From positions 32,001-96,000 of the IMG/VR virus record IMGVR_UViG_3300044712_000083: a stretch of DNA of 64,000 bases. One strand, 5' to 3'. The translations under genes and the position numbers were made by a program. The notes under the pieces are model-generated. The model did not search any database, had not been told where the DNA came from, and saw only the letters and a list, made by a program, of their open reading frames with translations. This DNA is from a virus. This document shows, in pieces, positions 3,079 to 62,863 of the stretch (position 1 is the first letter of the stretch; each line of letters opens with the position of its first letter).

Positions 3079-3084
3079 GATTAT

Positions 3085-3459: not shown

Positions 3460-3463
3460 TGTA

Positions 3464-23943: not shown

Positions 23944-26900
23944 CTATCGCATATTGTTCTCTGCCTGAATTGTAATATCAAATTCTTTAGCAAAGTCATT
24001 ACTAAATGATGCACCTAAGTTAATCACTGGTTTGAAACCTGGAGTTAACTTCATCAATGTTTTAATAGGGTAAACTTTCTTTCTAACTTCTTCAGGAGTT
24101 GTTTCTGCATCAAAATCTTGTCCTGTAATTTCTTGACCTAATTGTCCAGCAAACTTAAATACGTCTGCAAACAATCCTAATGCAGGAAGTTTATCTCCAG
24201 AAAGAATACGCTCAATCTCCATAGGGTTATAGAAGAATGAAAGCTCATCTGTAAACTTGTTCAGCATACGTTCTGTGTAACGCTTAGCGTTCTTCGTAGC
24301 TTTATCATCATCATCGTCTGGAGCAATCAAACCAAATCCACCTGTGAACAAGATTGTCATCAATGTAAATAATATACCAAGCTCTTTAATCTGATTACGA
24401 AGGTTGTTTACAATCATATCAGTGAAATCAGCTTTGGACATATTCATCTCTGTTCCTGTACGATCTTTCCACTCTTTCTTATACTTAAGGAATAGCTCAT
24501 CAATGATCGCCATACCCTTCTCATTAGCAGTTAGAATGTTAGTGATGTTAGAGGATAAGTCACGAACACTAGTTACCCATACAGTTGTTAATAATCTAAG
24601 ACGACCTATATCATATCTTTCTCCAGTTACTTTTCCTGTTACAGGATCAATACGTACAGAGAAGTCATCACTTGTTTTCTTGAACTCTGAGAAACGTACA
24701 TCAACAAGACGAGGAATCCAGTTTTGGAATACCATCGCACTTCTTGCCCAGATGTTCATACCTGCTTTATTAATATCACCGTTAGATAAGTTACCCGTGA
24801 TACTTCTAGCAATGTTTCTTGATAGATTAGTTAGACGTTGTGTCTCATCTAAGTTATTCAAGTCTAATCCAGGGATAACAAGCTTACCGTTTTCTAAACG
24901 TTTAGTAACCCACATGGACTTTGTCTTCTTAAGCTCCTCAATCTCTTCATTAATTTTTTTCTTACTTTCTCTGTATAGAGCAGAAGAGTCAGCTCTGTTC
25001 TGATACTTAGCACTCACATACTGTTTGATATTAACAATGTTACCATCAACAACCATGGAGTTCTTCATCAATGTCAAGAACACAGCTTTATCAATAAACT
25101 CTTCGGGCTTTCTCATGAAGAACATTAACATGTCTCCAAGGTTAGCTCTAGTAAGTGCTGAGATACCTGCCTCCTCATATAGCTTCTTAAACGGACTATC
25201 TTTAAGTGGCATGAATGTTTCCATCAATTGAACGAATGTTTCTGCACTTTCTTCATTTTGAAATATACCACTCATTAAATCAGCCTCACTACTTAAGAAC
25301 TCTCTACTTTTAAAGTATGTACCAGCTAATGCAGACATCTGAATGTTTGCACCAAATAAGTTGGCAAGACCAGAGAACGGATCAAGACCTAATGCTTTCA
25401 ACTGATACCACTTATTGATCTTCTCCATTGTCTTAACTGCAGACAAAGGTGTAGGATTCTCTTTGTACACTTCTCTACCAGCAGCCTTGTTAATCAATCG
25501 CTTAATGATATTCATAGGATTACCTATAGCAGTATCTGCATCAGATAAAGGATATCTTTGCTGTAACACTAATGCTTTGTAGAAGTTATCATACGTCTCA
25601 GTGTTTTCTTTATTCTCTGTAGTAATAACTACTGGTGTACCATCTTCTTTAGTAACAACGTCACCAAGTCTAGTTGTTTGTAAGTGTCCTTTGAACTCTT
25701 CAATTGTACTAAGTAGTTTCAACTGACCAGACACTTCTTTCAAATACTTGTACTTCTGTACGTGTTGAATATATAACACCAAGTTTGCAAAGATGTCCTC
25801 ACTAATTTGTGAAAAGTCTGTAGTATCACCAGCTTCTTTCTTTGTAAAGTCTTTGGTGTAGTATTTAGGAATACCGTTCTCAATCTGTTGTGTAAATTGG
25901 TTAATCTCACCAAGTCCAACATCTTTAGATGTAATTCTTAAATCATCTCCAATCTTACCTAAGTTCTCATAGAAATTAGCAATAGCAGAACCCACACCAT
26001 CAAATGCAACCTCCTCAGCCATAGTCTTAGCAACAAATGGTAAGAAGGTTTTCTTAATCATGTTACTAATGTATCCTTCTTCTGCAGCAATATTGTTTAC
26101 TTTCTCAATAAAGTTATAGAGCTTTAATAATCCTGGATCCTGCATAATTCTTTTGTATTCTTCTGAATACCATTTCTCAAGAGGATGACGCTTAACAATA
26201 TAGTTATTCCAACCATCAAAGTCTACACGGTCAATATCATATTTACGTTTCTGTTGTTCAATTAAGAACTTTCTACGTTTGATAGTCTCATCGTCATTAC
26301 CTGGATTGTTTCTTTCTATAGATTTTATTTGTCTATCAAGAACTTCAGCAGCCTCTTTCTTATAAGCTTCTACATCAATATTATTTAGTAACCAGTTCTT
26401 ATCTCCACCTTCTGGATCATTAGCATTCTTATCAACAGCCTCACGGAATTCTTTAGTATAAACATATACTAAGTTATTCATTCTCTTACCCTCATCATCT
26501 TTTTGATAGATGCTTCTAATCTTCTCCATGACGTTACCACCTTCCATCAGTTCTTTTCTGATTTCCAATAGTTCATTAACTAAAGCAATGCCATCTTTAG
26601 AAGCTTTATTTTCTGCAGCTTGTGTAACCTTAAATAAGATTTGTAAAGACTTCGAACCTAAGTCAGATACTCCACGGAACCAAGAGCTAATACCTTTGAT
26701 TACAGCTTCTGGATCCATCAATCCACCAACTAAGTTTCTCCATCCAATATACTTATCACCAAACCCGCCTTTACCTATTAATAACTTCTTAACACTTTGT
26801 TGAGTTCTAGCAATAGCACTTGCTTCTAATGTAAGTTCTTCTAATACACGTTTTCTTTCTGCAACTTGTTTCTTCTCCTCTTTAGTCTTAGCACTTTCTG

Positions 26901-29469
26901 CTAACTCATCTGTATAAATAAGATTACCTAATTTGACAGCAACATCTTTGAATCTATCAGATGTTTTGATAAATAATCTCATTTCATCAGAAAACTCTGA
27001 TAATTGTTTATCAGTTAATGACTTATCAAATACATCTCTGTCTTTGTATAGTAAGTTGTATTCATTGATGATACGCTCACCAGTGTTTCTTATATTACGA
27101 ATAACCTGAACAAGCTCACTTAGATCACCAGCTGTTTGTGTAATACGAATAGCTCTACTAAGAAGTGCAAGTCTTTCTTTTCTTAAGTCACGATCTTCTT
27201 CTTTAACTTCTTCTTGTTCTGTCATTTTATATAACAATACAAGATCCGCTACAACTTCATCAAGATCAGTATCACCTGTAGATTCTAATTCTTCAGATAC
27301 TGGCAATAAGTATAACTCATTCTCAACATCAATTCTACTAGCATCAACATCTCCAATAGAAATACTAGATAAACGTAAATCTGATTCAGGATCTTTTCTA
27401 TCCTTACGCTTGAACTCCATAGCAATTGGAATAGCTCTCACCATACCAAAGTCCTCAACTCCATATTGCTCACGCAAGATTTGACGATATCTACTCAACT
27501 GAATACCAAATGCACCTTGCTTAAACCAAGCAACATCATCTTGATCATTCTTAATGTGCATGAACTTCCAGTCAAGGATGTGTGTCTTACCAGAAGGTTC
27601 TATAGCTAAGAAGTCAATTGTACCAGCCTCATCTGCAATAGGATCATAGATTACAACCTCAGATAAGATTAATGTATCTTTATCAAGTGTATCTATTAAT
27701 TCTAAATAGTAGTTCTCTAGTTCTTCATACATTCCATATGAAGGAAGATTAATCTCTTCTTGACTAGGAGCTTCTAAAGGTTTTGTTCTTCTAGTTCCAT
27801 CTTCATTAAAGTATCTTCTATGGATTTCTTCTAAGTCTAAGTGACCAGCAATACCATAAGTTCTCTTTAATTCATTGAACTTCTTCTCTATGTCTGTAAA
27901 CTCTTTTTTAGGAAACTTCTTATTATACCAAGCTTTAACACGGTCTGTTACACGATTAGCAATTTTCTTAGCACTAGCTTGATTCTCATACCAGTTAGTA
28001 GCTTCTTCTGTATCTAATAGAATAGGATCAGCCTTTTCATCAGAGTATTTCTTTTTAATAAGATTCTTTGTATCCTCGATGTTCTTTATAATTTGCTCTT
28101 GAGCAGCAGTTACTGACTTCTGATAGAATACACCATTTGCTTGTAATTGATCTACAGTACCAATGTCTCCTGTAATAATCTGTTGAGCAGCCTCCTCAAA
28201 CAAAGACATATCTGTCTTACGATATTGTCCATTGATGAAATCCATAATAGCATTCCACCATCTACGAATCATAGACAGGTTCTCTCTTTCAAGAAGCTCT
28301 GGGTATTGTTGTGAGTTGTCTAGGCTATTGATTATAACCTCAGCGATCAATTTATCTACAGCTTCCTTCTTGATCTTACGAATATCAGGTTTACCATTTG
28401 GTAACTGATAGTCTGGATCATTCTTGTAGGCTTCTAGCACTTCTTTATAGATGGCAAAGCGATCAATCTTAGAGATCATTTCTGTTACCATAGAAGGATT
28501 CATGATCTCTATCATTGCTGTAGCAACGTGCACAACCTCTTCTGTTAATGCTTGTCCTTCTTTACCATCAGCAATAGCAATAACACGTCTTACTAAGTCA
28601 GCAAGACCAGTGATATCATTACGCTTAAGTCCAGTTGATTTCATGTAATCAGATAACTTCTGGATAGGTACACCCATCTTCTCAGCTATCTTCTTAAGTT
28701 TTTCTAAAGCTTGCTCAGATGCTACAGACTGACGCATTGGTCCTTTCTTCTGATAGGATGTAGCAGAAGAAGCTGATTTATTAGTTGCTACAAACTTTCT
28801 AAATCCTTCTATATCTTTTGCAGAACCTAGTATATGAATTTGTTCTGGATCAAATACAGTGACATCATTCTTTGTTACCTTCTCACCATTAACATTATAC
28901 TTAATTGGTAGAATTATAGAATCTTTTTTAGCTGCCTTTAATCTTTTTTCATTTGGTGAAGTAGGACTACCAAATTTTTTTTCACGCATTTCATCAAAGC
29001 CTTCTATTGTTGGTACTATAGTATATGGAGATTTAACATCTAAGATTGCTTGATATACTCTTCCTTTTCCATCTTCACCAATATAAGAAGAAGTTATTCT
29101 TTTACTAGGTGTAAAAAATATACCAGATGTAGTTCCATTAGATGGATCACTCATCTCCCAACCTTCTGAAAATGGCTTTTTAAAAACTTCAATATTAGTA
29201 GCTTTACTTCCGTGATATAAAATATCTTTTACTTGACTATCAGGAAAGATAGTATCTAAGTATGCAGAGTATTCTTCTTCATCACCAATCTCAGCTAGTT
29301 CAGGAGTAGATGAGAATACACTAGCTACTCCTGGTTTAACTGTTGGTATATATTCTTCTTGAGGAACTTCTCCTTCATATATATCCCATAGGAAATATGC
29401 TATATCGTTTCCTCTAGCTGCTACTAACTGATTCCAAGAATCTAAATTTTTATTTGGACAAGTTGCCAT
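23944..29469 (-). CDS. Large virion cargo protein with a polyvalent-protein-type ART-like domain, degenerate zincin and PD-(D/E)xK nuclease-like domain
   Basis: LYHGS...GIFFT...VFDPEQIHILG; LTEEVVH; SEVVIYD...AGTIDFL...ILDWK...QLSRY; hydrophobic segment near the C-terminus. Confidence 0.75.
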   Translation of the reverse strand: MATCPNKNLDSWNQLVAARGNDIAYFLWDIYEGEVPQEEYIPTVKPGVASVFSSTPELAEIGDEEEYSAYLDTIFPDSQVKDILYHGSKATNIEVFKKPFSEGWEMSDPSNGTTSGIFFTPSKRITSSYIGEDGKGRVYQAILDVKSPYTIVPTIEGFDEMREKKFGSPTSPNEKRLKAAKKDSIILPIKYNVNGEKVTKNDVTVFDPEQIHILGSAKDIEGFRKFVATNKSASSATSYQKKGPMRQSVASEQALEKLKKIAEKMGVPIQKLSDYMKSTGLKRNDITGLADLVRRVIAIADGKEGQALTEEVVHVATAMIEIMNPSMVTEMISKIDRFAIYKEVLEAYKNDPDYQLPNGKPDIRKIKKEAVDKLIAEVIINSLDNSQQYPELLERENLSMIRRWWNAIMDFINGQYRKTDMSLFEEAAQQIITGDIGTVDQLQANGVFYQKSVTAAQEQIIKNIEDTKNLIKKKYSDEKADPILLDTEEATNWYENQASAKKIANRVTDRVKAWYNKKFPKKEFTDIEKKFNELKRTYGIAGHLDLEEIHRRYFNEDGTRRTKPLEAPSQEEINLPSYGMYEELENYYLELIDTLDKDTLILSEVVIYDPIADEAGTIDFLAIEPSGKTHILDWKFMHIKNDQDDVAWFKQGAFGIQLSRYRQILREQYGVEDFGMVRAIPIAMEFKRKDRKDPESDLRLSSISIGDVDASRIDVENELYLLPVSEELESTGDTDLDEVVADLVLLYKMTEQEEVKEEDRDLRKERLALLSRAIRITQTAGDLSELVQVIRNIRNTGERIINEYNLLYKDRDVFDKSLTDKQLSEFSDEMRLFIKTSDRFKDVAVKLGNLIYTDELAESAKTKEEKKQVAERKRVLEELTLEASAIARTQQSVKKLLIGKGGFGDKYIGWRNLVGGLMDPEAVIKGISSWFRGVSDLGSKSLQILFKVTQAAENKASKDGIALVNELLEIRKELMEGGNVMEKIRSIYQKDDEGKRMNNLVYVYTKEFREAVDKNANDPEGGDKNWLLNNIDVEAYKKEAAEVLDRQIKSIERNNPGNDDETIKRRKFLIEQQKRKYDIDRVDFDGWNNYIVKRHPLEKWYSEEYKRIMQDPGLLKLYNFIEKVNNIAAEEGYISNMIKKTFLPFVAKTMAEEVAFDGVGSAIANFYENLGKIGDDLRITSKDVGLGEINQFTQQIENGIPKYYTKDFTKKEAGDTTDFSQISEDIFANLVLYIQHVQKYKYLKEVSGQLKLLSTIEEFKGHLQTTRLGDVVTKEDGTPVVITTENKENTETYDNFYKALVLQQRYPLSDADTAIGNPMNIIKRLINKAAGREVYKENPTPLSAVKTMEKINKWYQLKALGLDPFSGLANLFGANIQMSALAGTYFKSREFLSSEADLMSGIFQNEESAETFVQLMETFMPLKDSPFKKLYEEAGISALTRANLGDMLMFFMRKPEEFIDKAVFLTLMKNSMVVDGNIVNIKQYVSAKYQNRADSSALYRESKKKINEEIEELKKTKSMWVTKRLENGKLVIPGLDLNNLDETQRLTNLSRNIARSITGNLSNGDINKAGMNIWARSAMVFQNWIPRLVDVRFSEFKKTSDDFSVRIDPVTGKVTGERYDIGRLRLLTTVWVTSVRDLSSNITNILTANEKGMAIIDELFLKYKKEWKDRTGTEMNMSKADFTDMIVNNLRNQIKELGILFTLMTILFTGGFGLIAPDDDDDKATKNAKRYTERMLNKFTDELSFFYNPMEIERILSGDKLPALGLFADVFKFAGQLGQEITGQDFDAETTPEEVRKKVYPIKTLMKLTPGFKPVINLGASFSNDFAKEFDITIQAENNMR

Positions 29470-29470
29470 A

Positions 29471-32400
29471 TTAACAGATTAAATCATTTAGAATTTTACC
29501 AATTTCCTTTATGGAGAAGCCAGCAGCTAGTAAGTTCTCTGCAGTTACATCAGCTTTATTCCAAGGCTTACCTCTTAATAGAACTGTTTCTTCAGCAGTA
29601 GGATTCTCAACTACAGCATCTCCTTGATCACCGCGTAATTCATCTCTAACTTCCATAATTATTTTTGAGAATCTTCCTTTATCTTGTTCTACACCACCAA
29701 GCTTATGTGTAATTTCCATGTTGCCTGTTTCTAATAACTTCTCTAACTTGTCTGGATTCTGAGTGAATGATTCAGTCATTAACTTCTTCATCACTTTGTT
29801 GTAAGCACCATCCCACTGTTTAGTGTTCAAGTCTTTGATTCCTTCACCAATCTTCTTAGCGTTGTAACCATTTGCTTTAACTAATGAATCTAAAGTCTTT
29901 TGCTGATCAGCAGTTAGTTTACGAGTCTTTAAGTAACTGTTTGTATATAACAATTTAGATGCTTGTAATGCTCCTTCTACAGTTAAGAATACTTTATACT
30001 TTCCTGCAATTAATGTACGGAAACGCTTAAAGGCAAAGTTACTTAAATCTTTGTATTCTCCACTAGTAAACATTACATTTATTTTTTCAACATCTTCTGT
30101 CTGCTCATTCTGTACAGGAGTTCCTAAAGACTTGTCAAAATAGTAAAGTACATTCTCATCTGTAACTTCTGATTTAGAAATACGTTGACCTTTGCTGTTC
30201 TGTGCATTTACAACTTTGATGTATCCATTGTCAATTACAGAAGCTCTATTTGTGTCATAGTATTCATTAGCTCTGAAACCATCACCCAAAGCATTGATCA
30301 TCTTATAGATGTAGCTCTTGTATGTTTTACCATCACTACCAATGTTTGTTCTCATGTAAGGTTTTCCATCTGCATCTTTAACACGTTGGAACAATCCTTT
30401 ATATATAAATGAATAGTCTCCTTTAGCTCTCATTGCAAACTTCTGCTTTGATGTAAGCTTAGGATCTTCCCATGTATATGTAATCACATCACTATTAGAC
30501 TCTTTGCTAAATGCAGAGATCTTAATGATCATTGGTAAGTTCTTGAATGCTACAGCTTGCTTCACTGATTTAGGAAGGATAAGATCAGGATTAAACTTAC
30601 GACCTGTAGCTTCACTAACTTTATACTTACCACGCTTAGTAGGTACAACATCGCTATTGTTCCAGTTGTTTCTTTGGAAAGCATTCATTGTATAGAAATC
30701 ATCCAAGTTTGTCATCTTATCAATCTTAGATAAGGCAGCATTGTAGATATCTGTAAAGTCCTCATAAGGAAGTAAAGATGTAAATGAAATAGGAGATGAT
30801 GTAAGACCTGACTGTAGAACAGCTACGTTAACTAAGTTCTTGTATAGATCTTCGTTCTCTCTTCCTTTCAAATAATTCTTGATCTCTTCAAATGCATAGA
30901 TGATTTGGTTTTGATCGTACACCTTGTTATCCTTATTGATAATCTGAATGTTATATACGTTGCTACCATCTTGATCAATGGAAGTCATACGTAACGAGTT
31001 GATTACCTGATTGTTATAAAGATCATGAGTTGGATTAGCTTTAACTTCATTCACAAAGTTCATCATCTTATTAGCAAAGTTTTCCTTATCGCTAATTAAT
31101 AACTCAGGAATAAACGCTGCCATATTACCATCAACTTGTACAGCCCAGTCAAATAAACTCTTAACTGCCATCTGTGCAACCTTAGTAAAGTCTCTATCTG
31201 ACATATCTACATATGGCTCAAGAACACGGTGCATCAACGGTCTAATGTTTCCTGAATCAGAGATTAGGAACTTAGCAAGACCATCTCTAATTTCTTTGAT
31301 GTAGTCATATAGATTTTTGATGAATGATTCTTCCATCAACATATCTACACCAGGAACAACTGTACCCTCACTGTTTAATGATGAGAACATTGTACCTTGA
31401 GCTTTGTCAAGTTGCATTTGCTTCTTGAATACAATGAATGGATCATTGATTGTAGCTGTGTCAAAGTTAGAACCTTGTGTCACTTGATATAAGTGATTAG
31501 CCATTCTAGCATACTTCAAGAACTCCTTCAACATGTATCTCTGCTCAGCTTTCTCTGATGAAGTAAGTTTAGAAACTTTCTTACCAACTAAACCTGCAAG
31601 AGTATCCGCATCAGGAATCTTTGTAGATTTCTCTGACATAGTAGAAGAGTAATCATTTAGAGTATCTTCTAATACACCATCATTGAACAACCAACTATAT
31701 CCTTGGCTTTCTAACTTACGTAAGAAGTCACGAATGATTGGTTGGTTCATGAACATAGCTACATCACGAATAGGTACACCAGCCTTAACTAAGAACATCC
31801 AAGTGGAGGCTACGTTAGGAGTAGCACCAAGTTCCATAATCCATGGACCTTTTGCAATATCCACATAACCATCAATGAACTGTCCTAAGATGTCAGAGAT
31901 GTATTCTTTAGCTTTGTTCTTAATCATTGACAAAGTAACAACCTTTCCTAATGTAGGATGATCAACTTCATTCTTCATCTCAAAGTTAATCACACCATCT
32001 CCTAACCACATTTGATCTTCTTCAGACATGTTCTCTATCTTAGGTCTATCTAAGAACATGAACATACGCTGATTGTTAGCATGGTTAGTTTGGTTAACAG
32101 CAGCAATACCAATTGCATACTTACCTGTAACAAACGCATGACGAAGCTTAGACATAAACTCTCTGCTCAACATGTTTCCTGGAGAAGAGTAGTCTATCTC
32201 TTGAATACCAAGTAAACCATTAATCTCAGTTGCTAAACCTTTCAATTGATCAGCTGAGTTAGGTTTAGTTAACTGCTCAAAGTTCTCAGGAGATGTAACT
32301 AGATTCTCAGAAGATTGAATGTAAGCGTTCTGTAGAGATTTTTTATATAATGAATCAATTACAGCTTCTCTTTTTTCTACAGCAGTTATTGCTGCTTTTA

Positions 32401-35400
32401 AATCGCCTTCAATAAATGATTCTTTTTGAGCTTCTTCAAATAACTCATCATATAAAGATGCTTCATCTTTATTCATTGAATCGTACATCTCAGCAAACTT
32501 AGCTCTTGCTTCTTTACCAATTCCATAGAAAGGAATTACTTCAGGATAACCATTCTTGCCTGTACGCAAGTTTTTGAAGTAAATACTCAACTTATCTATG
32601 TCAAAGTCAGATCCTGCTTTCTGTACAAGTGGTCCTGGAACAATTACAGAGTCACCAAACTCTGCTGGTAAGAACTTAGCAATACGGAATGCATCAATAG
32701 AGTTTTGCTTTTGTGTAGGAATACGGAATGCAATACCAGTGATAGCAGCTAATTGAGCTTTACCTTCTTCAGTGTTATTGAAGTAGTTCATCAACTCCTC
32801 ATCTGTCTTATCAGACTTAAACCAACGACCAACCATAATCTCACATACACGCTGACCATCATCATCTACATAGAATTTCAACACCTCAGATATGTATGCT
32901 TTACCTTTAACAGGATCTTTCTTAGCATTAACTGTTTCTAATAGACGAGAAGACATCTGTACCTTTTGACCACCAGTAATCTTTGGAGAGATAACTGTAG
33001 AATCTGCAATAGAATACAAGATGTTTCTAAGTTGATCATACGCAGGCGTAGCCTCCATGATAACTTGTCCAGCTCTCATTCCTTCTAAAGCAGAGATCAC
33101 ATTATCGTTTACATCACGACTAGCAATTGAACTAGTTAATAAATCAATTACTTTATCAATGTTCGAAACAACATAACCATCCTTAGTTTTAGTAAGTCCT
33201 AACTTCTTTAATAATGTTTGGTAGCCAGTTTCTGTAATGGCTTCTAAAAGAGCTTGATTGTTTTTAATCTCTTTGTAAAGCTTAGACGCAGTTTCTTTAT
33301 TTGTTTCTTGTGACCAAGCAATGAAACGCTCTTCAAACTCTTTACCTGGCATATAGTCTACAGGAACTCCTCCAGCCATAAAGTCCATAGTGATTAACTT
33401 TGTAGCTTGTGATCCACGAGTTACAATGTCTTCACTCTTAGAAGGAACTTCTGATTGAATATCAATGATACCAAAAGGAACATTAACAATCCCTTTGAAC
33501 TTAGCGGTGTTCATTGCACCAGACTTATCATATAGATCATTAACTTGCTCAGCACCAACCTTTCTACCACTAGCATATACAGCATAGTCAATATCTTCAG
33601 CTATCATCTTATCATATAGCTTAAGAGCATTGGTAGAATTAACTAAGTTACCTGCTTCATCCTTCTCACTTAACTCATGTAAAATACGATATGATAGAGG
33701 GAATAATGCAAACTTGTCTAGCATTATATCATTGTAATCTTTACCATTATCTTTGTTACCACGAGAGATAGGCTTCAATGGAGTGTATGCACTCTTGACA
33801 CCAGGATTTCCTTTAGCAAGAAGTTCTTCTTCTTGTGGACTTAGCTTTTGTTTCTTATCACGCTTCTCCCACGCAATATCATAACGATACTGACGCTCTT
33901 CTGCACTATTCCATTCTCCAGCACGAATTCTAAACTTACGATGTGCAGGGAATGTAATCATACCACCACCATCAGTTTCATCATATGCTTTCCCCATGTA
34001 TCCTTTAAGATCATGGATAGCTTTAACGTCTGCTAATGTAATAGTTCTGAAGTGATCACGAATGAAATTACTATAGCCAATTCCACCTTTCTCAAAGCCT
34101 TCATTGTATACACGCTCCATAGCCTTGTTCATCTTAGGGCTACCAGCCATAATCTTTTGACCTGGAGAGTTGAAGTTCTTGATACGCTTTAATTCATCAG
34201 CATACTGATAAGGATCAGAATACAATAACTTATGCAATTCAATATTAGCAATCATGTAGTTTGCTGTTTGGGCATACATGATTTTATTGAATTGCTCTTT
34301 AGAAATTGTAGACTTAGTAATGAATGGTAGATCCTCTACCTTGTATGAGTTCTCATCTTTTGTAGACTCAGTTACAATCTCGTATTGTTTTAATACGTTT
34401 TCTGTAAATGCATTTGCATCTTTAGTAATGAAATTAACAATAGCTTTATTAATTTCTTTCTCGTACTTCTCGTAAACTTTTTCTATAGAACCTTCAGCAT
34501 TAACAATCTTATCATGTAAAGCATTGCGTTCTGTTTCAGTCTTAGCAGCATCATCAGCTAAAATAGCTTTGAAGAAACGTAAATCTTTCTTGCTACGAGT
34601 TTCTTGTTTGTTCTGTACAAAGGTACGATTTGTATCACGAGATAAGCTAAGCTCATCCATGAAGTAACCTTTGAAGATGTTTAACACTTCTTCTGGATCT
34701 TTTGCTGTTACATGTTTACCCATGTAGTTCATCCACTCCATAGAAGCATCGCCTGGAACAAGACTTAGGAAGTATCCTGCTTCATTCAAGTTCATTTCAA
34801 GAATAGTACGCTCTTTGAAGTTTAACTTAGATGAAGGTTTCTTCTTGTTAGTAACAGCATTGTTCATACCATCAGCAACACCTGGCTTGAAATATCTCTC
34901 TGAATTTTCCTTACGAAAACCTTTAGACGTAAACATTGATTTAATCAATACAGAGTTTCTTGCAAAGTCATCTGTAAGAATATATGAATAACGTGTGTCA
35001 CGTAACTCTTCTAAGTTATCAATCTTTGATAATACATCAAACAATTCACTAGCAGCATTTGGTCCAATGAATGTCTGTGTCTTCTCACCATTAATGTTGT
35101 AGTATGTACTACTAAATTCAGGGTTATCAATCTTAGCCTTAAGTTCAGATAGAGTGTTCAGACGACCATCAATATCCAAAGTCTTTCCTTGGTTACTAAT
35201 AATCTTACTTCCTTTAGAAATACTTTCATAAATACCTTTTACAGCATCATCAAAGTTCTTTCTATCTTGAACATTAAGTCTATCAACTTCAGAACGAGTG
35301 AAACCTTTAATTCCTAAATTATTTAAGAATGCTATTTGACCAGCAGTTTTCTTAAGATCAACTTTAGATAAACTACCTTTCTTACCTACATAATTAACGC

Positions 35401-51600: not shown

Positions 51601-54290
51601 TGATCACCAACTTGTACATTTTTTAAAATATCCGAATTAAGTGGTCCGTGTGTACCTTCATTATATACTAACTCTCCCTCATTCTTTAACATCTGATATG
51701 TAGTGTACCAAGCATTGTCTGCATTAGCAGCATAGTTATATGCTTCACCAGGAAGTATTTGTCTACTAACACTTGATGCTATAGAATTTGCAATCTTTGC
51801 ACATTCTGCATCAGATCCACACCCATGCATTAATTTATTTCTCTGGTATAGATGACTTAAGTTTTTATCATATACTAGTTTCTTAAATTCTTTACTTGTT
51901 TTATAACCTGTTGGAAATAACCCACTACCAGACCCTGGTTCATAAATAGGTAGCTTGTATTGTTCTGCTAATTCTGGATAAGCATCCAAATGCTGATCTA
52001 TACTGCTAGAAAAGTCTCTACCTATATTAGTGTCAAATAAATCATCTATAATATGAGAAGGTCTTATGTAACGCTTTGGCTCAGCACTAGTATTAATACT
52101 AGGTGTTCTACGCAGTGCACTAACTGCTTCTCCTAAAGTAGATCTTACTCCTGGTAATGCAGATGCTACAAACGGTAAAGCATTTAATGCTGTATATCCT
52201 GTTTGCAAAGATGCATCTGCTATATTTCCTGAAGTAGGATCTTTAAAAGCTTTCTTAACTGACTGTGCAACATTAGGTATATTATTAGCTGCCTCATATG
52301 CAAATCCAGCATTCAAAAGATTATTAGCAGTTAATCCTGCTACTCCAGCTATAGGAGCTTCCATTGCTGCTCCTATGTATGGTAATATTGCAGGACCAGC
52401 TACAGCACCCGCAGCTATGGCAGGAGTTGTATACATGAACTGATTAGCAGCTACATCACCTGCTGTTGGATTGTATCCAGTAGGGGTTAATGAACCAAAG
52501 GTTTGGGCAAGCTGAGAGTTATTAATCATATCTTGTCTCTCTCTAGCTTTTTTAACTGCAGCTCTTTGAGAAGGTGATATGTTATCTGCAGAAATATATG
52601 TTTGTCTTTTAGCAGCTTCTGCAGCAAGTCTAGCTTTTTCTATCTCAGCATCTCTTGCTATTTCTTCTTTAGTCTTTAGACGTACTTTAGCTGGTTGTTG
52701 TACAGTTACAGCATCTTTCTTAGCAACAGTACCACTATATTGATATTTATCTAACTCACCCCCATTCTTGTATGGATTAAGAATAGATGTTGTAATTTCT
52801 GAAGGACCTGTTGTATTTTCTACACGTCTAATCAATCCTTTAGGTAATAATATTTCAGATTCATTAGGGAATTTACTATAACTTGTTGCATTAGGAAATG
52901 CATAAGATTGCATTCTGCCACCTGGAAGAATTATATTATCTAAGAATTTATATTCATTTTGGTGATCCATGTTGTAAAAACTAGTAGGTAATGATGTAGA
53001 TAAAAACTCATTGTCTTTATATATATCTCCCACTTGTAATTCTGATCTACGTTTTTTACCAAGAAATGAATTAGTATTAGGATCAATTAAATTTACATCG
53101 TAGTTATTAACTGTTCTATTAACTACTGTTTCTTTATTAATTTTATTTTTTAAAATTGCATCATTTAATCTATCAGATAATGTTGTAAAATGATTTATTA
53201 AATTTTCAGGTAATTTTCCAGTTGCGGATACTCTATTATTAAAATAAGGATAATAACTTTCTGTATAAGCACCCATCAATGCTCGTTCTTCTGGAGTTAG
53301 TTTAGAAAGATCATAACCTTCAGTATCATAGAATTGCTTAGAGGCAACACCTCTTAGATCATAATTACCAGACTTCATGAAACTGTGTTCAGGAGCTATA
53401 TAATCATTTATAGTATATTGTGGCAATCGATCTGCAACTCTTAATCTCATGTTCAATAACATAGCTTGATCAACAGCCTCTCGTGCGTTAAAATCTCCTT
53501 GACTGATTAAGTCAGGTCTTAGTTCATCAACTGCTTTATTATATATTTCCTTTAATTCCTTATCTGAAAACTTAGTAAAATCATTTCCAAGTGCTCGTTT
53601 AGCAAATTCTATATGTTGAGTAGGTTGATAATCAGAGATAGGTCTACCATATTTTTGATGTACGTTACGAGATACACCTGCTGCTTCTTGTAAAACATCA
53701 TTAGTAGTATTAGCTACTTGACCAGCATCAGCAATATAATCTGTTACACCTGCAACTTTTGCAGCATTAGCTGGAATATTTGCAGCATTAGCAAATGGTC
53801 TATATGCTGCTAATCCTAATCCTGTAAGTCCCGCATTAAGTAAAGCAGAACCATAGTTACCTTGCAATGCATCTCTTCCTCCTAAATAACTAGAACCAGC
53901 CATGCTTAATAATGTACCAGCACCTTCAAGATATGGGGAAGCAGGTCCTGTGATTGGAGCAATCAGTTCTAGTCCACCGCCAATATATTGAGCCTTATTA
54001 GCAACATCGTCATACATCTTTTGTCTCTGCTCTTGTGTAGCTATGTCTTCCATAGCTTGCTTCATAGCAGGAGAAGCAGATGTACCTAGTTTATTAATGT
54101 AAGTTTTTCTCTTAGCTACCTCCTCATTAAACTTATCTTTTCGATTAGCTTCTATTCTTTTCAATTCTTGAGAATCCAATACCTTTGGAATAACTACTTT
54201 ATCTTTCTTAACAGTAGTTAATCCAAATGGATCTAAATTACCATCGTAAGCATATTTATCTAACCAACCTGAAGATTTCTGCTTTCCCAT
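48627..54290 (-). CDS. Multi-effector cargo polyprotein (R-S-E ADP-ribosyltransferase, CHAP-like, lysozyme-like, HExxH metallopeptidase)
   Basis: AYT...VNR...FLSTS...ESEILLP; CAK...GDQVMF...NH...IGES; QES...GTFRQ...SWN; HEFRH...EPTE; domains separated by G(W/E)LDKY and xxxGG motifs. Confidence 0.8.
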   Translation of the reverse strand: MGKQKSSGWLDKYAYDGNLDPFGLTTVKKDKVVIPKVLDSQELKRIEANRKDKFNEEVAKRKTYINKLGTSASPAMKQAMEDIATQEQRQKMYDDVANKAQYIGGGLELIAPITGPASPYLEGAGTLLSMAGSSYLGGRDALQGNYGSALLNAGLTGLGLAAYRPFANAANIPANAAKVAGVTDYIADAGQVANTTNDVLQEAAGVSRNVHQKYGRPISDYQPTQHIEFAKRALGNDFTKFSDKELKEIYNKAVDELRPDLISQGDFNAREAVDQAMLLNMRLRVADRLPQYTINDYIAPEHSFMKSGNYDLRGVASKQFYDTEGYDLSKLTPEERALMGAYTESYYPYFNNRVSATGKLPENLINHFTTLSDRLNDAILKNKINKETVVNRTVNNYDVNLIDPNTNSFLGKKRRSELQVGDIYKDNEFLSTSLPTSFYNMDHQNEYKFLDNIILPGGRMQSYAFPNATSYSKFPNESEILLPKGLIRRVENTTGPSEITTSILNPYKNGGELDKYQYSGTVAKKDAVTVQQPAKVRLKTKEEIARDAEIEKARLAAEAAKRQTYISADNISPSQRAAVKKARERQDMINNSQLAQTFGSLTPTGYNPTAGDVAANQFMYTTPAIAAGAVAGPAILPYIGAAMEAPIAGVAGLTANNLLNAGFAYEAANNIPNVAQSVKKAFKDPTSGNIADASLQTGYTALNALPFVASALPGVRSTLGEAVSALRRTPSINTSAEPKRYIRPSHIIDDLFDTNIGRDFSSSIDQHLDAYPELAEQYKLPIYEPGSGSGLFPTGYKTSKEFKKLVYDKNLSHLYQRNKLMHGCGSDAECAKIANSIASSVSRQILPGEAYNYAANADNAWYTTYQMLKNEGELVYNEGTHGPLNSDILKNVQVGDQVMFGPDAFLAHPQQSPLTGNLKEPRVNHRATVVGMSPDGNNLLIGESFDGRLITVPIQNNVYYNAASNRGIRSIVRPQQFVGKSKEIAKRAILNDINLNTGTIDFGVSPELEPYKEVYDKIKPTLIGNLGIHADELDQIFRHVLGIGIQESKMSGKMAKGLTKAKVLIQDKLREVGLTKPVKEVINAVKEYGNRKYVENPDLLEFPGKSKMQMEASKLAEKEGISFNEALESLYTTTYNRPKPFALSNTDPSVGTFRQKYLSKTAKRLGLTEGDLKIGKGGKNDFYNSAENELTAAIANFYDLKNSLAKKHPDWSDQKLYDMATLSWNSPSKANNQELVDYFYEFKDNPKFEGFDYLNKVKSNIKQHAPINSITPTTEIKLTKPFLQFKEGGWLDKYEDGGDLNANNYTVSAPEGYEGSGYSNVGRNYSPAWGGQFEDGGPVKKFLQPTQTFQNIGYNPRENGISTEYSTTVGKDGEYYLVPGFKQGRLVEDPEGLFNFTGEHLGGPFKTIQSAEDFAKFRHDYVEKNKNIPLLFKTRDYAMGGSLPGAVGFTYARTNNPAPSNGPYAKKTLPSAVDGIELNETEPVKQSTTKNKRRIKQEEEIMNRAPLDIIEEGRSKFRYNMLEDAVRHDMAAEQNIDLGAVDKDALDKRTKELLVKRESKLANPTVEFVTGSGTASGTGPVLGYYDPENKGALISLSDNLDKYGIDEFGNTVRHEFRHAYDDGGRYLTEYEKNLISNKTMGTSEQVSKKLEKVGVDKYRYLSEPTEVTGRLQEIRGALKKYPLLIKNDESNNVGAQSSGSGFGSGFKSSDNQYQYYDPKTDKATLEHVNSLKGKVSGLRDLLKIMSPEDVVELLNTIAANDPQQGLPMAQNGMQFYQNGLDFKPKSISKNGSVIEDDMGQWAHPGKVTKIKSNKITMKGVPYPVLGISDTGDMQMMYPNQEYQYIGDSVTEYPMMKQGGQLTKLDQLTNFTNYNTKQPGGWLDKYQD

Positions 54291-55176: not shown

Positions 55177-58100
55177 TTAGCAGATTCCATCTGATATCAC
55201 TGTACCACCTGTATTCAATTGAATATATCCGTTGTCAGTGTTGTAATATCCAGATCCTAATGTAGATGATCCAATTGAATCTGTGTAGATTGTTTTACCT
55301 ATACTAGGAACACCACCTGTACAGTATGCTAATTGATCTACAGCTCTTGTACAAACATTGACAGGCGTTCCAACTGTACTGATATAGAATGGATCATATG
55401 AAGGAGGTACGTATCCACATGTAGGGCTATTAACTTCAACTACTTGTTGATTTCTTGTAGCACTTGTACATGAGTTAACTTCTTGGCTCCATAGAGTAAA
55501 TCCTACACAGTAGTATTGTAAATCCCAAGTACCACAGCTTTCGCTCACTGTACCTGTATCAATTGTTCTTGTAGTTCCTGCAGCACAAGGATTAGTTTGT
55601 ACTTGATCTTGACGTAATGTACATGATCCTGTTATGCAATATGCATTTCCTGAATTAACCCAAACTGGAGTAGTGTCAGGATAAGAGTTAGAAGGATTAG
55701 TTGATTGCCATGTTCCACCTACTAAATAGATGTTAGCTCCTGTGTAACAAGGATTGCTATTAACATAAACTGGAGTTGAATTAACTGTACCACTTGAACA
55801 TGTGTAGTATGTACCTACTTGACCTCCTTGGGTTTGAGTGTTACTAGCACCGCAAGCACCACTACATGTTACATCGTAAGTGTTACCTGTTGGATTACCA
55901 TTACAGTAGTATTTCTCAATGAAACGCTGTGTTGTTCCTAAACAAATGTAATCTGTGTAGTAAGTTCCGTTACATGCTTCATTACACTGACAAGAGCAAT
56001 TACTAATTACATAAGATGAACTTTCTCCACAGTCATTGATTGTAGGTTGAATCAATGCGTTTCCACTACATATTGGAGATCCCGAAGGTACATAATTTTG
56101 TCTATTATACAATGTAAATGTTAAATTATTACCAGCAGTTAATGTAACAGTTGATCCACTGCCGTATGACGATCCATTAAGTATAGCTGAACAAACATAG
56201 AAACCATCATAGTCTACACGAATTGTAGTTCCTACAGGATAACTTCTAGAACCTCCATCCCAACTAGGATCTGCAGTACCATTGATATAAGGTGTGTAAG
56301 AACTAACATTCAATCCATTTAACGGATTCAATGTTACTGTTACAGGAGCAATAGTAGTACTTGTAGTAGTAGTACTGCTTGGAGGTACAGTGGTACTAGT
56401 TGATGTAGTAGATGTTGAGCTAGTACTTGTTGTTGTACTTGTACTAACAGGATTCATATAAAGTGTAATAGGATCACTAAGGTTAGTACATGCTGCACTA
56501 CCAACATATGCTTGAATAAAGTTACCAGTAGGAGTACCATCCCAATCAACATTAATTGTCTGACTTCCTGCAGAATTAAATGTTAATGATATAGGAGTTC
56601 TAGTTCCACCAGCAATTGAAGTACCGACTACAATTGGATATGAAGTAGAGCTAGGAGCACTCATTGTAACTGTGTAAACAGCAGATTCAAATGGTGCTAC
56701 TGTTGTAGGTCCTGTGAATGTCCAATCACCATTTACAATCGGCACACATGCAAGCGTTGTACTTGTACTAGTTGTAGAAGTAGAAGTAGAAGTAGACGTA
56801 CTTGTTGAAGTAGATGTACTAGATGTAGATGTTGAAGTAGATGTTGTAGGTCCTACATATTCTGTTGTTGTACTAGTAGTAGTTGAAGTAGGTCCTGAGG
56901 TAGTACTAGTAGTGGTACTTGTAGTTGGAGTTAGAGTACTTGTAGTACTTGTAGTTGGAACTATTGTAGTAGTAGTACTAGTTGTAGGAGCAATAGTAGT
57001 AGATGTGCTTGTAGTTGAAGTAGTAGATGTACTTGATGTTGACGTAGATGTTGAAGTCGAAGTAGATGTACTAGTTGAACTTGTAGAACTTGTTGTAGAA
57101 GTTGTTGTTGGAGTGTAGTTTATAGCATCAATAGTAAACACACAACCTTCTTTAACTGCATTTCCTACCAACTGACAAGGAGTTACATATGACGCACTAC
57201 CATTCAATGAACAATAAACATCTATTGGTCCAAATGTAGTTGAAGTAGTTGTAGTAGATGTACCAAGAATTGTACTAGTTGTAGTAGTAGTTGATGGTCC
57301 TACATATGCAGTGGTAGTTGTTGTAGTAGTTAATCCTGATGCAATAGCAGAAAAATCACAACCTTGATTGTTTCCAGAATAGAAGAAGTTATTCTCAGCA
57401 ATGTAATAGTTAGGAATATAACTATGGAAAGAGATCCAACTCTTTGTATTCATGTTGTAAGACAATGTCCATGACTTATTACAGAAGTATGTAATGTCAT
57501 TTAACTGAACAACCTCTTTAATTGTAGTATTTCCTGCAATAGGATAGATGTAATATTCTTTATAGTAACCTACTTGTGCAGGATCTGTACCATAGAAAAT
57601 CTTACCAACCCAATTTGGTTGTGGGATGTAGTCAAGTTTAGTGATAATGATTCTATCAAATTTAGAATCATACACACCTGTTAAACCAACCTTAGTATAA
57701 TTGTTATCTACATCAGCTTCAGGGAAGTAACGTAAGATTTCAAATGCTAAATGGTCAGTCATAAAACGATTGACACCTGAACCAAATGCAGATAAGTCCA
57801 CAACTTGTGTTCCTGTTACTAAGAATATCTGTCCACGTTTAGCATCAATTGTTACTTGTCCATTAGGAATCTTTAGCAACATCTTGTGTTGAGATCCTAC
57901 ATATCCTAAATCTGTCTCAGCAAAATCAATTGGAGGAGCAGATCTAAACAATGTAGAATTACCAATATAAGCAGCTTGTGGATTGCTTGTATCGATTGTA
58001 AGCATTGTGTTGTATAACAATGACTTATTCTCAAAACGAGCTAAGATAGCCTTGTTTTGGATACCATCTAATGATGTAAGCTTTCCGTATGTTTGAGGGA

Positions 58101-61911: not shown

Positions 61912-62863
61912 ATCGGTTTGTTCTGTTTGGCAGTTCGTACATGTTGAACCTGTTCAGGTCATTCTTAATTCTGCGTTGTTTATCCCAAGCAGTTTGTTTC
62001 TTTATTTCAATATCGGCCATAATGAATGCCTCTTCAGAAAGTTGCTTATAATAAGCAAGCTTCTGTTGTATTTGTTGGAACGTTTCATCTGTTAATTGGT
62101 TGGAAAGCATTTCAAACACTTTGTATTTAATGAACGCTTCTATGTATTCACGAATACGATAGTTATCAGGAATCAACTGATTACCAATTTCATCATATTC
62201 TGTAGCATAGAATACTAAGTGTACAATGCCATTTCTAAAATTAGTTACGAATTTATTATCTCTAATATCAAATGATCCATATCCAGAAGATCCTGGAGTG
62301 AAATTAGCTCTGGTAGCCGCTGCTGTACCATTATCCCATGCAGAAGTGTAAGATAAATCACAATTGCCTCTTGCAGAGATATTACCTGGTTGAAGTAAAT
62401 ATTCTTTAGTGTACAAGTTTGCAGCACTATTGTTTGTCTTGTAAACAGTCTGAATTAACTCAGGCATACATTGTCCATCACAGCCTACATTAGCGCAGCT
62501 AGGATTAGTACAAGAGCCATCTTGTGTAGTGATTGGACTAACTTGTATAGTTGTAGCAGTAAATGCTTGAGAATAGAAAGAACTAGCCTCCTGGTAAGTG
62601 TTACCATATACTGATGTACACATCCAAGCTTCTCTTACAGCATAGAAGTTATCTGGAAGACGAGCTTCAAAATCCATAACATCAAGAGGCTGCTCTGCAA
62701 TAACATAAGTAGTTCTACCTAACTTACGTAGACACTTGTCTAAATAAGTGGGAAACAATAAATCATCAACAGCTCCTGTATCAAAGTAGCTTTTTAATTC
62801 TTCCTTTACTGTAGCATATACAGGCTCAGGAGAAACAAAATCATATTTATAGTAGTATGACAT
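61889..62863 (-). CDS. Tail tubular / ring protein (crAss-like)
   Basis: Synteny between the IHF-like and stabilisation genes; ARLPDNF and IPDN..IREYIEAFI motifs. Confidence 0.7.
   Translation of the reverse strand: MSYYYKYDFVSPEPVYATVKEELKSYFDTGAVDDLLFPTYLDKCLRKLGRTTYVIAEQPLDVMDFEARLPDNFYAVREAWMCTSVYGNTYQEASSFYSQAFTATTIQVSPITTQDGSCTNPSCANVGCDGQCMPELIQTVYKTNNSAANLYTKEYLLQPGNISARGNCDLSYTSAWDNGTAAATRANFTPGSSGYGSFDIRDNKFVTNFRNGIVHLVFYATEYDEIGNQLIPDNYRIREYIEAFIKYKVFEMLSNQLTDETFQQIQQKLAYYKQLSEEAFIMADIEIKKQTAWDKQRRIKNDLNRFNMYELPNRTNRYGRRRNN

Follow-up and report, generated by a model that had tools for sequence, protein, structure and literature searches.

The removal of ADP-ribose from DNA bases by NADARs, and its use by phages as a counter-defence, was shown only in 2023-2025. 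To our knowledge, all characterised phage NADARs are small free proteins that are produced after infection. The crAss-like phages include the viruses that are most abundant in the human gut, and the searchable literature contained no mention of NADAR or DUF1768 in crAss-like phages. AdfN (gp30.3) of phage T4 is by experiment a DNA ADP-ribosylglycohydrolase that is used against host ADP-ribosylation by DarTG1 (PMC11825919, PMC11125620). DarT1-NADAR and YarT-YbiA provide precedents for the pairing of an ART with a NADAR, and in both the eraser is the antidote to the writer (PMC11543638, PMC11125620). Packaged NADARs were predicted earlier (Iyer et al. 2017, 2022; PMC9503650); the survey in PMC9503650 described the NADARs of phages as mostly standalone proteins that occur chiefly in myoviruses, and crAss-like phages were unmentioned there. 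What is new here is a predicted eraser that is built into the putatively injected RNA polymerase of crAss-like phages and that recurs in hundreds of sequence clusters.

The window, a stretch of 64,000 nucleotides, derives from a complete 114-kb crAss-like phage genome. One uninterrupted open frame of 4448 aa (P0001; 29471..42817, with this and all other features given here on the minus strand) encodes a protein that, by its homology, its DxDxD motif and its association with a muzzle/cargo block, is the crAss-like virion RNA polymerase of the phi14:2 gp66 type. In a tblastn search, aa ~2966-3706 matched phi14:2 g066, the "catalytic RNA polymerase subunit" (5e-20), and the "putative RNA polymerase" of crAss001 (9e-9). 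The polymerase core spans aa 2898-3751 (31565..34126) and contains the metal-binding DFDID at aa 3404-3408 (32594-32608); D507, F508, D509 and D511 were invariant in an alignment of 12 core sequences. Upstream of the polymerase gene lie the genes for the muzzle protein (55177-61911; Pfam crAss_MUZ, 6.9e-37) and ring protein 1 (61889-62863; Pfam CrAss_Ring_1, 3.4e-9), which together (55177..62863) are markers of the crAss-type virion/cargo gene block. An orthologue (P0002) shares 91% identity with the protein across 4594 aa. No match came from comparing the region with GenBank phages by megablast or from searching PDB sequences with the full 4448-aa polymerase.

Profile searches and structure prediction confirmed that aa 4242-4400 of this polymerase (29618..30094) are a true NADAR domain, as the earlier note had proposed for the C-terminus. 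Pfam NADAR (PF08719) matched aa 4255-4371 (29705-30055) over profile positions 9-121 of 163, with an E-value of 4.8e-9 and 37.1 bits (cut-off 35.1) when the query was a 309-aa C-terminal piece. The score was 36.6 bits in the genome-wide profile search and 32.6 bits, under the cut-off, against the whole 4448-aa polymerase. The profile of the NADAR family in turn matched YbiA (E 1.3e-15) and the NADAR of P. nicotianae (3.4e-10). An AF2 model of the domain (pLDDT 91.2) adopted the NADAR fold, which answers the structural comparison that the earlier note had suggested: its three best PDB matches were the three solved NADARs, with Foldseek values of 1e-6 and 1e-5, probabilities of 1.00 (2b3w, 8bau) and 0.99 (8bat), and VIA Z scores of 16.6 (8bau, computed over model residues 13-171), 14.5 (2b3w) and 8.9 (8bat), followed by a next match at 3.0. 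The motifs that had first drawn attention to the region all lie in frame within the last 200 residues, namely DLSNFA (aa 4257), TVEGALQASK (aa 4279), AKKIG, QWD...VMKKLM..SFTQN, LLETG, MEITHKLGGVEQDKGRF (aa 4367) and MEVRDEL. The NADAR is followed by a 48-aa tail (aa 4401-4448; 29474..29617) that was predicted by AF2 to form a beta-hairpin and two helices. This tail is 98% identical to its counterpart in P0002, gave a weak HTH_38 match (E 0.036, under the cut-off), and has similar counterparts after the NADAR in P0012, P0022 and P0063.

The catalytic residues of characterised NADARs are present in the domain. Glu4281 (codon 29975-29977) and Lys4288 (codon 29954-29956), both within TVEGALQASK, align with the corresponding Glu and Lys in both YbiA and 8bau, are equivalent to E43/K50 of the P. 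nicotianae NADAR and to E88/K95 of the E. coli C7 NADAR, and occurred without exception in all 139 family domains. Mutating the catalytic Glu or Lys abolishes guanine-ADPr hydrolysis by NADAR (PMC11543638). Trp4335 and His4371 were likewise invariant across the 139 relatives, and Asp4379 was nearly so. The last strand ends in Thr4370-His4371, after which comes a variant loop, KLGGVEQDKGR (aa 4372-4382; 29672..29710 with the Thr-His); the counts around this strand were T 138, H 139, Q 136 and D 130 among the 139 domains. The earlier note had read the usual E.S..D..WG segment as ITHKLGGVEQD. That reading was right in that the Trp-Gly is gone, replaced by Gly-Arg-Phe with a 5-residue insert, but the Asp of this pyrophosphate-contacting loop (D130, alongside W133, in the P. 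nicotianae NADAR) is retained as Asp4379 and the "ITH" is the last strand with its invariant Thr-His. Nor does the segment depart from the catalytic set through loss, since it is a conserved loop subtype: EQD-type loops occurred in 21 of 141 family domains (~15%) and the Trp-type THTQDKGKWG in 113. A conserved minority form of this kind is not decay-like. The 21 EQD-type domains fell into 17 lineages in a FastTree phylogeny built with the loop masked, in which the 150-aa domain was poorly resolved, and we therefore draw no conclusion about the EQD loop as one clade.

Two other interpretations of these residues were rejected. The domain is not a decayed NADAR remnant, given its intact catalytic set and the retention of the variant loop in 21 diverged domains. 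The Glu of "MEIT" does not serve as the YbiA-type catalytic Glu, given a variable column (T 66, E 38, I 11, others) in which the 91% orthologue P0002 has Gln. At the position used by YbiA the last strand has neither Glu nor Asp, and its Thr-His aligns with a His of T4 AdfN and of YbiA in a register that the sequence alone does not fix. Elsewhere, the domain differs from the family in 13 of the 57 columns that are highly conserved; it has Glu at the position of Arg79, which binds pyrophosphate in the P. nicotianae NADAR and is a basic residue (Arg or Lys) in 106 of the 139 family members, and Tyr where Ser stands in 124 of 139 relatives. At 90% identity to P0002, the domain has diverged no further than the remainder of the polymerase.

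The NADAR subfamily to which the domain belongs is large and almost phage-only, comprising 488 clusters at 50% identity, and the NADAR shared an open reading frame with the polymerase core at 64 of 81 loci. The 38 nearest polymerase relatives had neither a NADAR nor an ART-PolyVal. In the eight nearest relatives that were checked, homology ended at aa ~4201-4242, exactly at the NADAR start, and the NADAR is thus a lineage-specific addition.

One nucleotide downstream of the polymerase gene begins the gene for an 1841-aa cargo-type protein (23944..29469), the two meeting in the junction TAA-t-ATG (29467..29473). This protein contains an ART-PolyVal domain (aa 83-211; 28837-29223; Pfam PF18760, E 1.7e-10 and 7.8e-14) in which His27 and Glu150 of the signature YHG...EPEQIHILG are invariant. 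The domain sits within an insertion at aa ~62-256 (28702-29286) that is specific to the lineage: the same eight relatives matched aa 1-~60 and ~245-1841 of the cargo protein and skipped the ART. By these alignments, the NADAR and the ART-PolyVal are lineage-specific insertions on either side of one gene junction, 263-278 nt apart. A tblastn search of GenBank phages with the ART domain gave no match. The two domains were joined in a single protein in eight representative clusters. Relatives such as P0041, L006, L007 and L075 have the ART-PolyVal in the same open reading frame. More broadly, an ART occurred within 10 kb of 19 of 86 NADAR clusters versus six of 80 polymerase-seeded loci (odds ratio 3.5, p 0.009), in samples that were seeded differently and uncorrected for shared ancestry. 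The ART lay downstream of the NADAR in 17 of the 19 cases, and an ART was within 10 kb of six of the 10 NADAR clusters with the loop type found here. A second ART-PolyVal subfamily was detected by Pfam and included in the ART HMM.

The earlier note was correct that the phage has two ARTs of its own in cargo-type proteins. The second, an ADPrib_exo_Tox (Pfam E 1.7e-9), occupies aa 329-493 (52812..53306) of an 1887-aa protein (48627-54290). We found no tie between this R-S-E type ART and the NADAR; its family was present in one of 40 NADAR-bearing records. The proposed co-ejected writer/eraser set fared unevenly. Its link between NADAR and ART-PolyVal was supported by the co-insertion at one junction, the fusions elsewhere and the ~3.5-fold enrichment. 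It does not provide a general reason for the NADAR: 67 of the 86 NADAR clusters (78%) had no ART nearby, 17 of 21 near-complete records in the 40-record NADAR-bearing subset were without either ART family, and 73 of 80 ART-PolyVal loci were without a nearby NADAR, the enrichment of NADAR there being not significant (p 0.53). The co-occurrence in relatives that had been suggested as a check gave the same divided answer, with ART enriched near NADAR but most clusters unpaired. An obligate toxin-antitoxin relation between ART-PolyVal and NADAR was rejected as a general rule by these unpaired loci and clusters.

The reading that we favour, tentatively and with confidence a little short of even, is that aa 4242-4400 most likely form an active glycohydrolase of the NADAR type, which would remove ADP-ribose from nucleobases; the residue pattern and the modelled fold point in this direction. 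The phage would probably thereby keep its DNA or RNA clear of ADP-ribose as soon as infection begins. Proteins associated with the polymerase belong to the virion cargo and are expected to be ejected (PMC10172136); judging from PhiCrAss001 and phi14:2, the crAss-type polymerase would be packaged in the particle and enter the cell by ejection. An eraser that is part of the ejected polymerase would therefore be on hand before phage genes are expressed. Tethered to the polymerase as it opens the incoming DNA, the NADAR could strip ADP-ribose from the template strand, the nascent early transcripts or both, and this removal would leave early transcription unblocked. The ART-PolyVal, situated in the next cargo protein and gained together with the NADAR, would be the likeliest origin of the modification in this phage; the tethered eraser would shield phage nucleic acids in cis, and the transferase would modify host targets. 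Host nucleic-acid ARTs may be a second source, and the likelier one in the numerous relatives that possess a NADAR but no ART.

Less probable, and in our estimation rather unlikely, is that the same activity is aimed only at host ARTs that modify phage DNA or RNA (DarT1-like, pierisin/ScARP-like or CmdT-like). The NADAR would then be a counterpart of T4 AdfN that is made in advance and injected, and the ART-PolyVal would be a separate host-takeover effector that shares its insertion hot spot. Phage NADARs of several clades do neutralise DarTG1 by taking ADP-ribose off DNA (PMC11825919), and the prevalence of NADARs without a phage ART, both among clusters and among near-complete records, implies that the NADAR has a role independent of the phage ART. 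The presence of a polymerase core within 10 kb at 61 of 80 ART-PolyVal loci, most of them without a NADAR, fits a hot spot for accessory domains. The specific proposal of the earlier note, that a host DarT-type defence is countered, nonetheless drew no support from Bacteroidota, the presumed host phylum: DarT was found in 34 of 401 sampled genomes, and all 18 of the loci inspected were DarT-Macro (DarTG2), none being DarT1-NADAR. The thymidine adduct of DarT2 is not removed by the tested NADARs (PMC11125620). The domain itself is unlike the BC4488 type of DarTG1, which combines a catalytic Asp with an N-terminal extension that binds DNA, having Thr-His rather than Asp-x-Glu in the last strand, and the DarG1-type structure from G. 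lovleyi was its weakest NADAR match (Z 8.9), aligned only from residue 48 of that structure. PF14487 (DarT) had no match in the 114-kb genome. The gain of NADAR and ART at one junction in this lineage, along with the enrichment of ART beside NADAR, argues against an exclusively host-directed role.

More doubtful still is an elaboration in which the NADAR and the ART-PolyVal are an injected toxin-antidote pair that tells self from non-self by tethering. The diffusing ART-PolyVal would ADP-ribosylate cellular nucleic acids indiscriminately and the eraser copies would be present only on the phage RNA polymerase, so that only the transcribed DNA and its transcripts would be kept clean. If this is true, the broad occurrence of polymerase-NADAR fusions among crAss-like phages would imply that base ADP-ribosylation is a major, largely unstudied battleground between Bacteroidota and their phages.

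We regard it as improbable that the NADAR acts on small molecules, degrading or binding free ADP-ribose derivatives that serve as immune signals or toxins (e.g., cyclic ADPR isomers of the TIR/Thoeris type, or what NADase effectors such as retron Eco1 produce) in place of nucleic-acid adducts. According to PMC11825919, which cites Carabias et al. 2024 on Retron-Eco1, another phage NADAR protein works without enzymatic activity, and a different ligand could explain why two positions that contact the pyrophosphate are altered (Arg79 to Glu and Trp133 to Arg). Set against this, tethering to a DNA-bound polymerase, perhaps with few copies per virion, would be ill suited to clearing a signal that diffuses; the repeated fusion to the polymerase and to a transferase suggests a macromolecular substrate; and the genome holds no SLOG, Macro or Nudix partner. 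Least probable of all is a non-catalytic module, which would have lost its hydrolase activity and would read ADP-ribose or serve in the structure or packaging of the giant cargo protein, for although the missing Trp-Gly of the pyrophosphate loop, the Glu in place of Arg79, the 13 deviating columns and the sub-threshold whole-protein Pfam score would suit it, all five of Glu4281, Lys4288, Trp4335, His4371 and Asp4379 are kept, the variant loop is itself conserved, the domain has diverged from its orthologue no further than its surroundings, and T4 AdfN is active with an aligned loop that also lacks Trp-Gly (PMC11825919).

If the favoured reading of an active, polymerase-borne glycohydrolase is right, the polymerase-NADAR architecture provides a concrete idea of how crAss-like phages may protect their first round of transcription. 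The link to NADAR also hints at what the widespread ART-PolyVal domains might modify, and the Trp-type and Gly-Arg-Phe-type loops constitute a natural experiment on substrate recognition by NADARs.

The same NADAR subfamily, at 39-41% identity, is present in cr126_1 (QOR59539.1), cr130_1 (YP_010113266.1) and cr131_1 (YP_010113391.1), which belong to different families (Steigviridae, Suoliviridae) and in which the proteins bear no annotation beyond "DUF1768 domain-containing", "DprA-like" or "hypothetical". In cr130_1, as here, the NADAR is C-terminal to the polymerase core and an ART-PolyVal-like domain is found in the next gene; in cr126_1 the NADAR and the core share one open reading frame, but the NADAR is N-terminal and has a Trp-type loop. 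The closest solved structures are 8BAU (P. nicotianae, with ADP-ribose; Z 16.6, rmsd 2.2 A) and 2B3W (E. coli YbiA; Z 14.5, 2.9 A), each over ~146 residues. Equivalents of E43, K50, K75, G78 and W89 of the P. nicotianae NADAR are kept, whereas overall identity to YbiA and 8BAU is 18-25%, the last-strand Glu (E125) appears to have no equivalent, W133 is replaced, R79 is Glu, R93 is Tyr and ~14 residues are inserted after the catalytic Lys.

T4 AdfN resembles the domain in being a phage-encoded NADAR with conserved catalytic Glu and Lys, in apparently having a last-strand His at the place that Glu takes in enzymes of the YbiA type, and in lacking Trp-Gly in the following loop (G-L-T-K-D-D in AdfN, G-V-E-Q-D-K here). 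The two are remote in sequence: hhalign gave a probability of 78% (E 1.8e-5), and BLASTP gave no significant match. AdfN is a free-standing early protein of 152 aa, with no polymerase fusion and not described as packaged, whereas the NADAR described here is the C-terminal part of a structural-block protein. The known opponent of AdfN, DarT1, was absent from the 18 inspected Bacteroidota DarT loci. With the DarT1-NADAR and YarT-YbiA pairs the locus shares an ART gene that adjoins the NADAR gene. It differs from the DarT1-NADAR pairs in that the transferase is an ART-PolyVal and not a DarT, the NADAR has Thr-His and not the Asp of the BC4488 subfamily, the partners are parts of giant virion proteins rather than a chromosomal two-gene operon, and most members of its family have no partner ART.

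Like the polyvalent virion effectors and the packaged ARTs of the T4 Alt type, which are giant multi-domain virion proteins with ART and ADPr-processing domains for which injection and early action are predicted, the protein is a very large virion protein with unrelated domains, here the polymerase core and the NADAR in one open reading frame; in contrast to the phage NADARs surveyed in PMC9503650, this NADAR is carried by the virion RNA polymerase itself. The RNA-virus polyproteins of nidoviruses and others belong to RNA viruses of eukaryotic hosts, contain another class of polymerase and have presumed host PARP-type targets, and they share with this phage a NADAR that is physically linked to the viral polymerase, in their case by the RdRp (PMC9503650).

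The sequence motifs from which the earlier note had proposed a NADAR domain, fused to the C-terminus of the virion RNA polymerase, were all in frame and lay within the last 200 residues of the 4448-residue protein. When the C-terminal 309 residues were scanned alone, Pfam NADAR matched residues 4255-4371 (E = 4.8e-9, 37.1 bits, cut-off of 35.1); the NADAR region also matched PHROG 1017 (1.9e-13), and a profile built from 47 relatives matched E. coli YbiA (1.3e-15) and the P. nicotianae NADAR (3.4e-10). The top three PDB matches of an AlphaFold2 model of residues 4230-4448 (mean pLDDT of 91.2) were exactly the three solved NADARs, according to Foldseek (1.1e-6, 1.0e-5, and 1.7e-2) and VIA-align (Z of 16.6 with rmsd of 2.2 Å over 146 residues, 14.5, and 8.9; next PDB entry, 3.0). 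The structure comparison that had been suggested as a check thus returned a NADAR fold; the observation is confirmed, and the domain was identified correctly. The domain spans residues 4242-4400 (window positions 29618-30094, minus strand) and is 90% identical to that of P0002, an orthologue with the same level of identity (91%) over the whole protein. It is followed by a 48-residue tail (residues 4401-4448; 29474-29617, minus strand), predicted to form a β-hairpin and two helices, that is 98% identical in this orthologue, shows a weak HTH_38 match (E = 0.036, below the cut-off), and recurs after the NADAR at the C-termini of three relatives (P0012, P0022, and P0063). The tail may act as a small element for DNA binding or docking.

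The key residues of NADARs are known from mutagenesis and an ADP-ribose complex (Schuller et al. 2023, PMC11543638): Glu (E43/E88) and Lys (K50/K95) in the first core helix; Glu, Asp, or His in the last strand; and R79, W89, R93, D130, and W133 as pyrophosphate contacts. In an alignment of 139 family domains with YbiA and T4 gp30.3, Glu4281, Lys4288, Trp4335 (the W89 equivalent), His4371, and Phe4383 were invariant across the family, and Thr4370, Gln4378, and Asp4379, all present in the window's domain, were kept in 138, 136, and 130 of the 139 domains. The last-strand signature of the family is Thr-His; its His aligns with that of T4 AdfN (profile comparison, E = 1.8e-5), and T4-like NADARs, in which His is described as replacing the Glu, are active (PMC11125620, PMC11825919). 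The Glu of a nearby MEIT segment was rejected as the last-strand residue, its column being variable and occupied by Gln in the 91% identical orthologue. After the His, 113 domains have a Trp-type loop (T-H-T-Q-D-K-G-K-W-G) and 21, including the window's, read T-H-K-x-x-G-V-E-Q-D-x-G-R-F; Q-D is common to both forms, and relative to the Trp-type the second has a 5-residue insert and Gly-Arg-Phe in place of Lys-Trp-Gly. The window's loop is a conserved alternative form, not decay. Its domain does show oddities, with Glu at the R79-equivalent position (Arg or Lys in 106/139), Tyr at a column that holds Ser in 124/139, and deviations at 13 of the 57 columns that are highly conserved. When the loop columns were masked, a tree of 141 domains scattered the 21 Gly-Arg-Phe domains over 17 lineages among the Trp-type ones, a pattern that could reflect recombination-driven loop exchange, convergence, or the poor resolution of a 150-residue tree.

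The source record is a complete virus genome of 114,191 bp with direct terminal repeats, and a crAss-type virion block occupies the minus strand of the window. The gene order runs from ring protein 1 (61889-62863) and the muzzle protein (55177-61911; Pfam crAss_MUZ, 6.9e-37) through several large cargo-type proteins to the 4448-residue ORF (29471-42817), an 1841-residue cargo-type ORF (23944-29469), all on the minus strand, and a tail protein. Because the 4448-residue protein contains one DxDxD motif (DFDID, residue 3404) and its residues ∼2966-3706 show tblastn matches to phi14:2 g066, annotated "catalytic RNA polymerase subunit" (5e-20), and to the "putative RNA polymerase" of crAss001 (9e-9), it is assigned as the virion RNA polymerase. 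Compared with P0002, residues 1801-2000 (window ∼36800-37400) are only 50% identical, and P0002 possesses ∼146 additional residues directly after the DFDID region (residues ∼3430-3490, window ∼32350-32530). Mass spectrometry detected the polymerase-associated proteins of PhiCrAss001 in its virions, and they are modelled as ejected cargo that enters the host (PMC10172136); by analogy, we infer that the polymerase described here is packaged.

Both ADP-ribosyltransferases (ARTs) that had been noticed in this phage are genuine according to Pfam: ART-PolyVal at residues 83-211 of the 1841-residue protein (28837-29223, minus strand; 1.7e-10 / 7.8e-14) and ADPrib_exo_Tox at residues 329-493 of an 1887-residue protein (1.7e-9). 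Neither DarT nor a Macro domain was found in the 114-kb genome. The His of Y-H-G and the Glu of E-P-E-Q-I-H-I-L-G are invariant in ART-PolyVal; the window's copy has Phe-Phe within the G-I-Y-F-T motif, the Tyr position being Phe here and Asn in locus L007, so the Y of the presumed H-Y-E triad is not strictly kept. The polymerase-NADAR gene stops with TAA and the ART gene starts one base later. Of the 80 IMG/VR loci retained in the polymerase-seeded set, the 38 nearest the window's polymerase (44-54% core identity) had neither NADAR nor ART. In the eight closest that were checked, polymerase homology ended at residues ∼4201-4242, exactly at the NADAR start, and the next protein matched residues 1-∼60 and ∼245-1841 with the ART skipped; the NADAR with its tail and the ART are therefore two lineage-specific insertions on either side of one gene junction.

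The expected co-occurrence of ART and NADAR in relatives was partly borne out. Of 86 NADAR-seeded clusters (clustered at ∼80% identity), 19 had an ART-PolyVal-type domain no more than 10 kb away on the same strand, and in 17 of the 19 it lay downstream of the NADAR, at distances of 31-5112 nt. Because the samples were seeded differently and the statistics ignore shared ancestry, the comparisons are indications only: 19/86 versus 6/80 polymerase-seeded loci (odds ratio of 3.5, p = 0.009), 6/10 for the window-type versus 12/62 for the Trp-type loop (p = 0.012), and, for NADAR at ART-seeded loci, 7/80 versus 4/80 polymerase-seeded loci, which is not a higher rate (p = 0.53). An obligate NADAR/ART-PolyVal pair is rejected as a general rule: 73 of 80 ART-seeded loci had no NADAR within 10 kb and, among the 21 near-complete records of a 40-record NADAR-bearing subset, Pfam detected ART-PolyVal in 4 and ADPrib_exo_Tox in 0. 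A second ART-PolyVal subfamily (W-H-G-T ... G-F-Y-F-S-P; L034:12841-13515(+), L025:12604-13263(+), L020, L074, and L232), with strong Pfam matches (1e-21) and missed by an HMM made from the window-type ART, is found downstream of Trp-type NADARs, mostly at a distance of ∼2 kb (0.2-2.4 kb). The ART-seeded loci (L087-L166) had a polymerase core within 10 kb in 61/80 cases, and in ∼25 ART-PolyVal shared the ORF of the core, on either side. ART-PolyVal is itself often added to the polymerase region, and the gene of the polymerase looks like a hot spot where accessory effector domains are acquired.

Most likely, the NADAR is a working ADP-ribosyl-base glycohydrolase that is delivered into the cell within the polymerase, and there it would hold the template, the early transcripts, or both clear of ADP-ribose. 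Given the co-insertion and adjacency, the phage's own ART-PolyVal is the most likely ADP-ribose source, and the eraser would then provide cis-protection; a family-wide, ART-independent role must exist, presumably against host enzymes. Alternatively, the NADAR may act on a small molecule, as Iyer et al. 2022 proposed in general terms, or may be a non-catalytic reader, for which PMC11825919 notes a precedent, citing the Retron-Eco1 paper: another phage NADAR protein that needs no enzymatic activity. The suggestion of the earlier note that the domain counters host DarT-type defence fared less well. In a sample of 401 Bacteroidota genomes, taken as a proxy for the presumed host phylum and chosen through a "Bacteroidetes bacterium" MAG, DarT (PF14487) occurred in 34, and all 18 DarT loci with a scanned neighbour (L175-L192) were two-gene DarT-Macro systems, i.e., DarTG2, with macrodomain proteins of 340-360 residues. 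Adducts on guanine and cytidine can be removed by NADARs (PMC11543638; PMC12945103), but the thymidine adduct of DarT2 is not reversed by those tested (PMC11125620). An anti-DarT1 role is thus a reasonable analogy that these loci do not directly support, and the interpretation in the earlier note is partly right: the NADAR fold, the polymerase fusion, and the two ARTs stand.

Among 1.84 billion cluster representatives searched, 488 NADAR clusters were found at E ≤ 1e-3 (266 at ≤ 1e-10), the majority being 2000-6900-residue proteins with the domain at variable positions; of the best 150, simple phmmer found the polymerase core in 34 and ART-PolyVal in 8. Across 80 IMG/VR loci plus the window, NADAR and core shared one stop-free ORF at 64 loci (NADAR downstream in 52, upstream in 12), and 11 further loci had the NADAR downstream but on another ORF piece; several of these appear to be recoded. 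With table 11, the polymerase/NADAR frame breaks into pieces of 68-130 residues or more at L045, L049, L050, L074, L082, L002 (cr131_1), and L003 (cr130_1), where GenBank annotates long proteins; this fragmentation looks like stop-codon reassignment in late genes. A set of 185,579 prokaryotic species genomes contained only 8 matches to the subfamily, all on MAG contigs (L167-L174; Dehalococcoidia, Clostridia, Bacilli, Pseudomonadales, Saccharibacteria, and Bacteroidota; one contig of 114,697 bp), and since the assigned phyla are unrelated, these are probably mis-binned crAss-like phage DNA.

The phi14:2 and crAss001 records gave no tblastn match to the NADAR, and no paper in the searchable literature names NADAR or DUF1768 alongside crAss-like phages. 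Three crAss-like phages in GenBank carry the subfamily, namely cr126_1, cr130_1, and cr131_1, where it is annotated as "DUF1768 domain-containing", "DprA-like", or "hypothetical"; cr126_1 has polymerase core and NADAR in a single ORF, and cr130_1, like the window, has an ART-PolyVal-like domain in the following gene. Phage NADAR erasers and packaged ARTs are already known as concepts, Iyer et al. 2022 having predicted packaged NADARs and ARTs and called phage NADARs typically standalone; the searchable literature does not describe the polymerase-NADAR architecture, how widely it occurs among crAss-like phages, the alternative loop, or the co-insertion of NADAR and ART.
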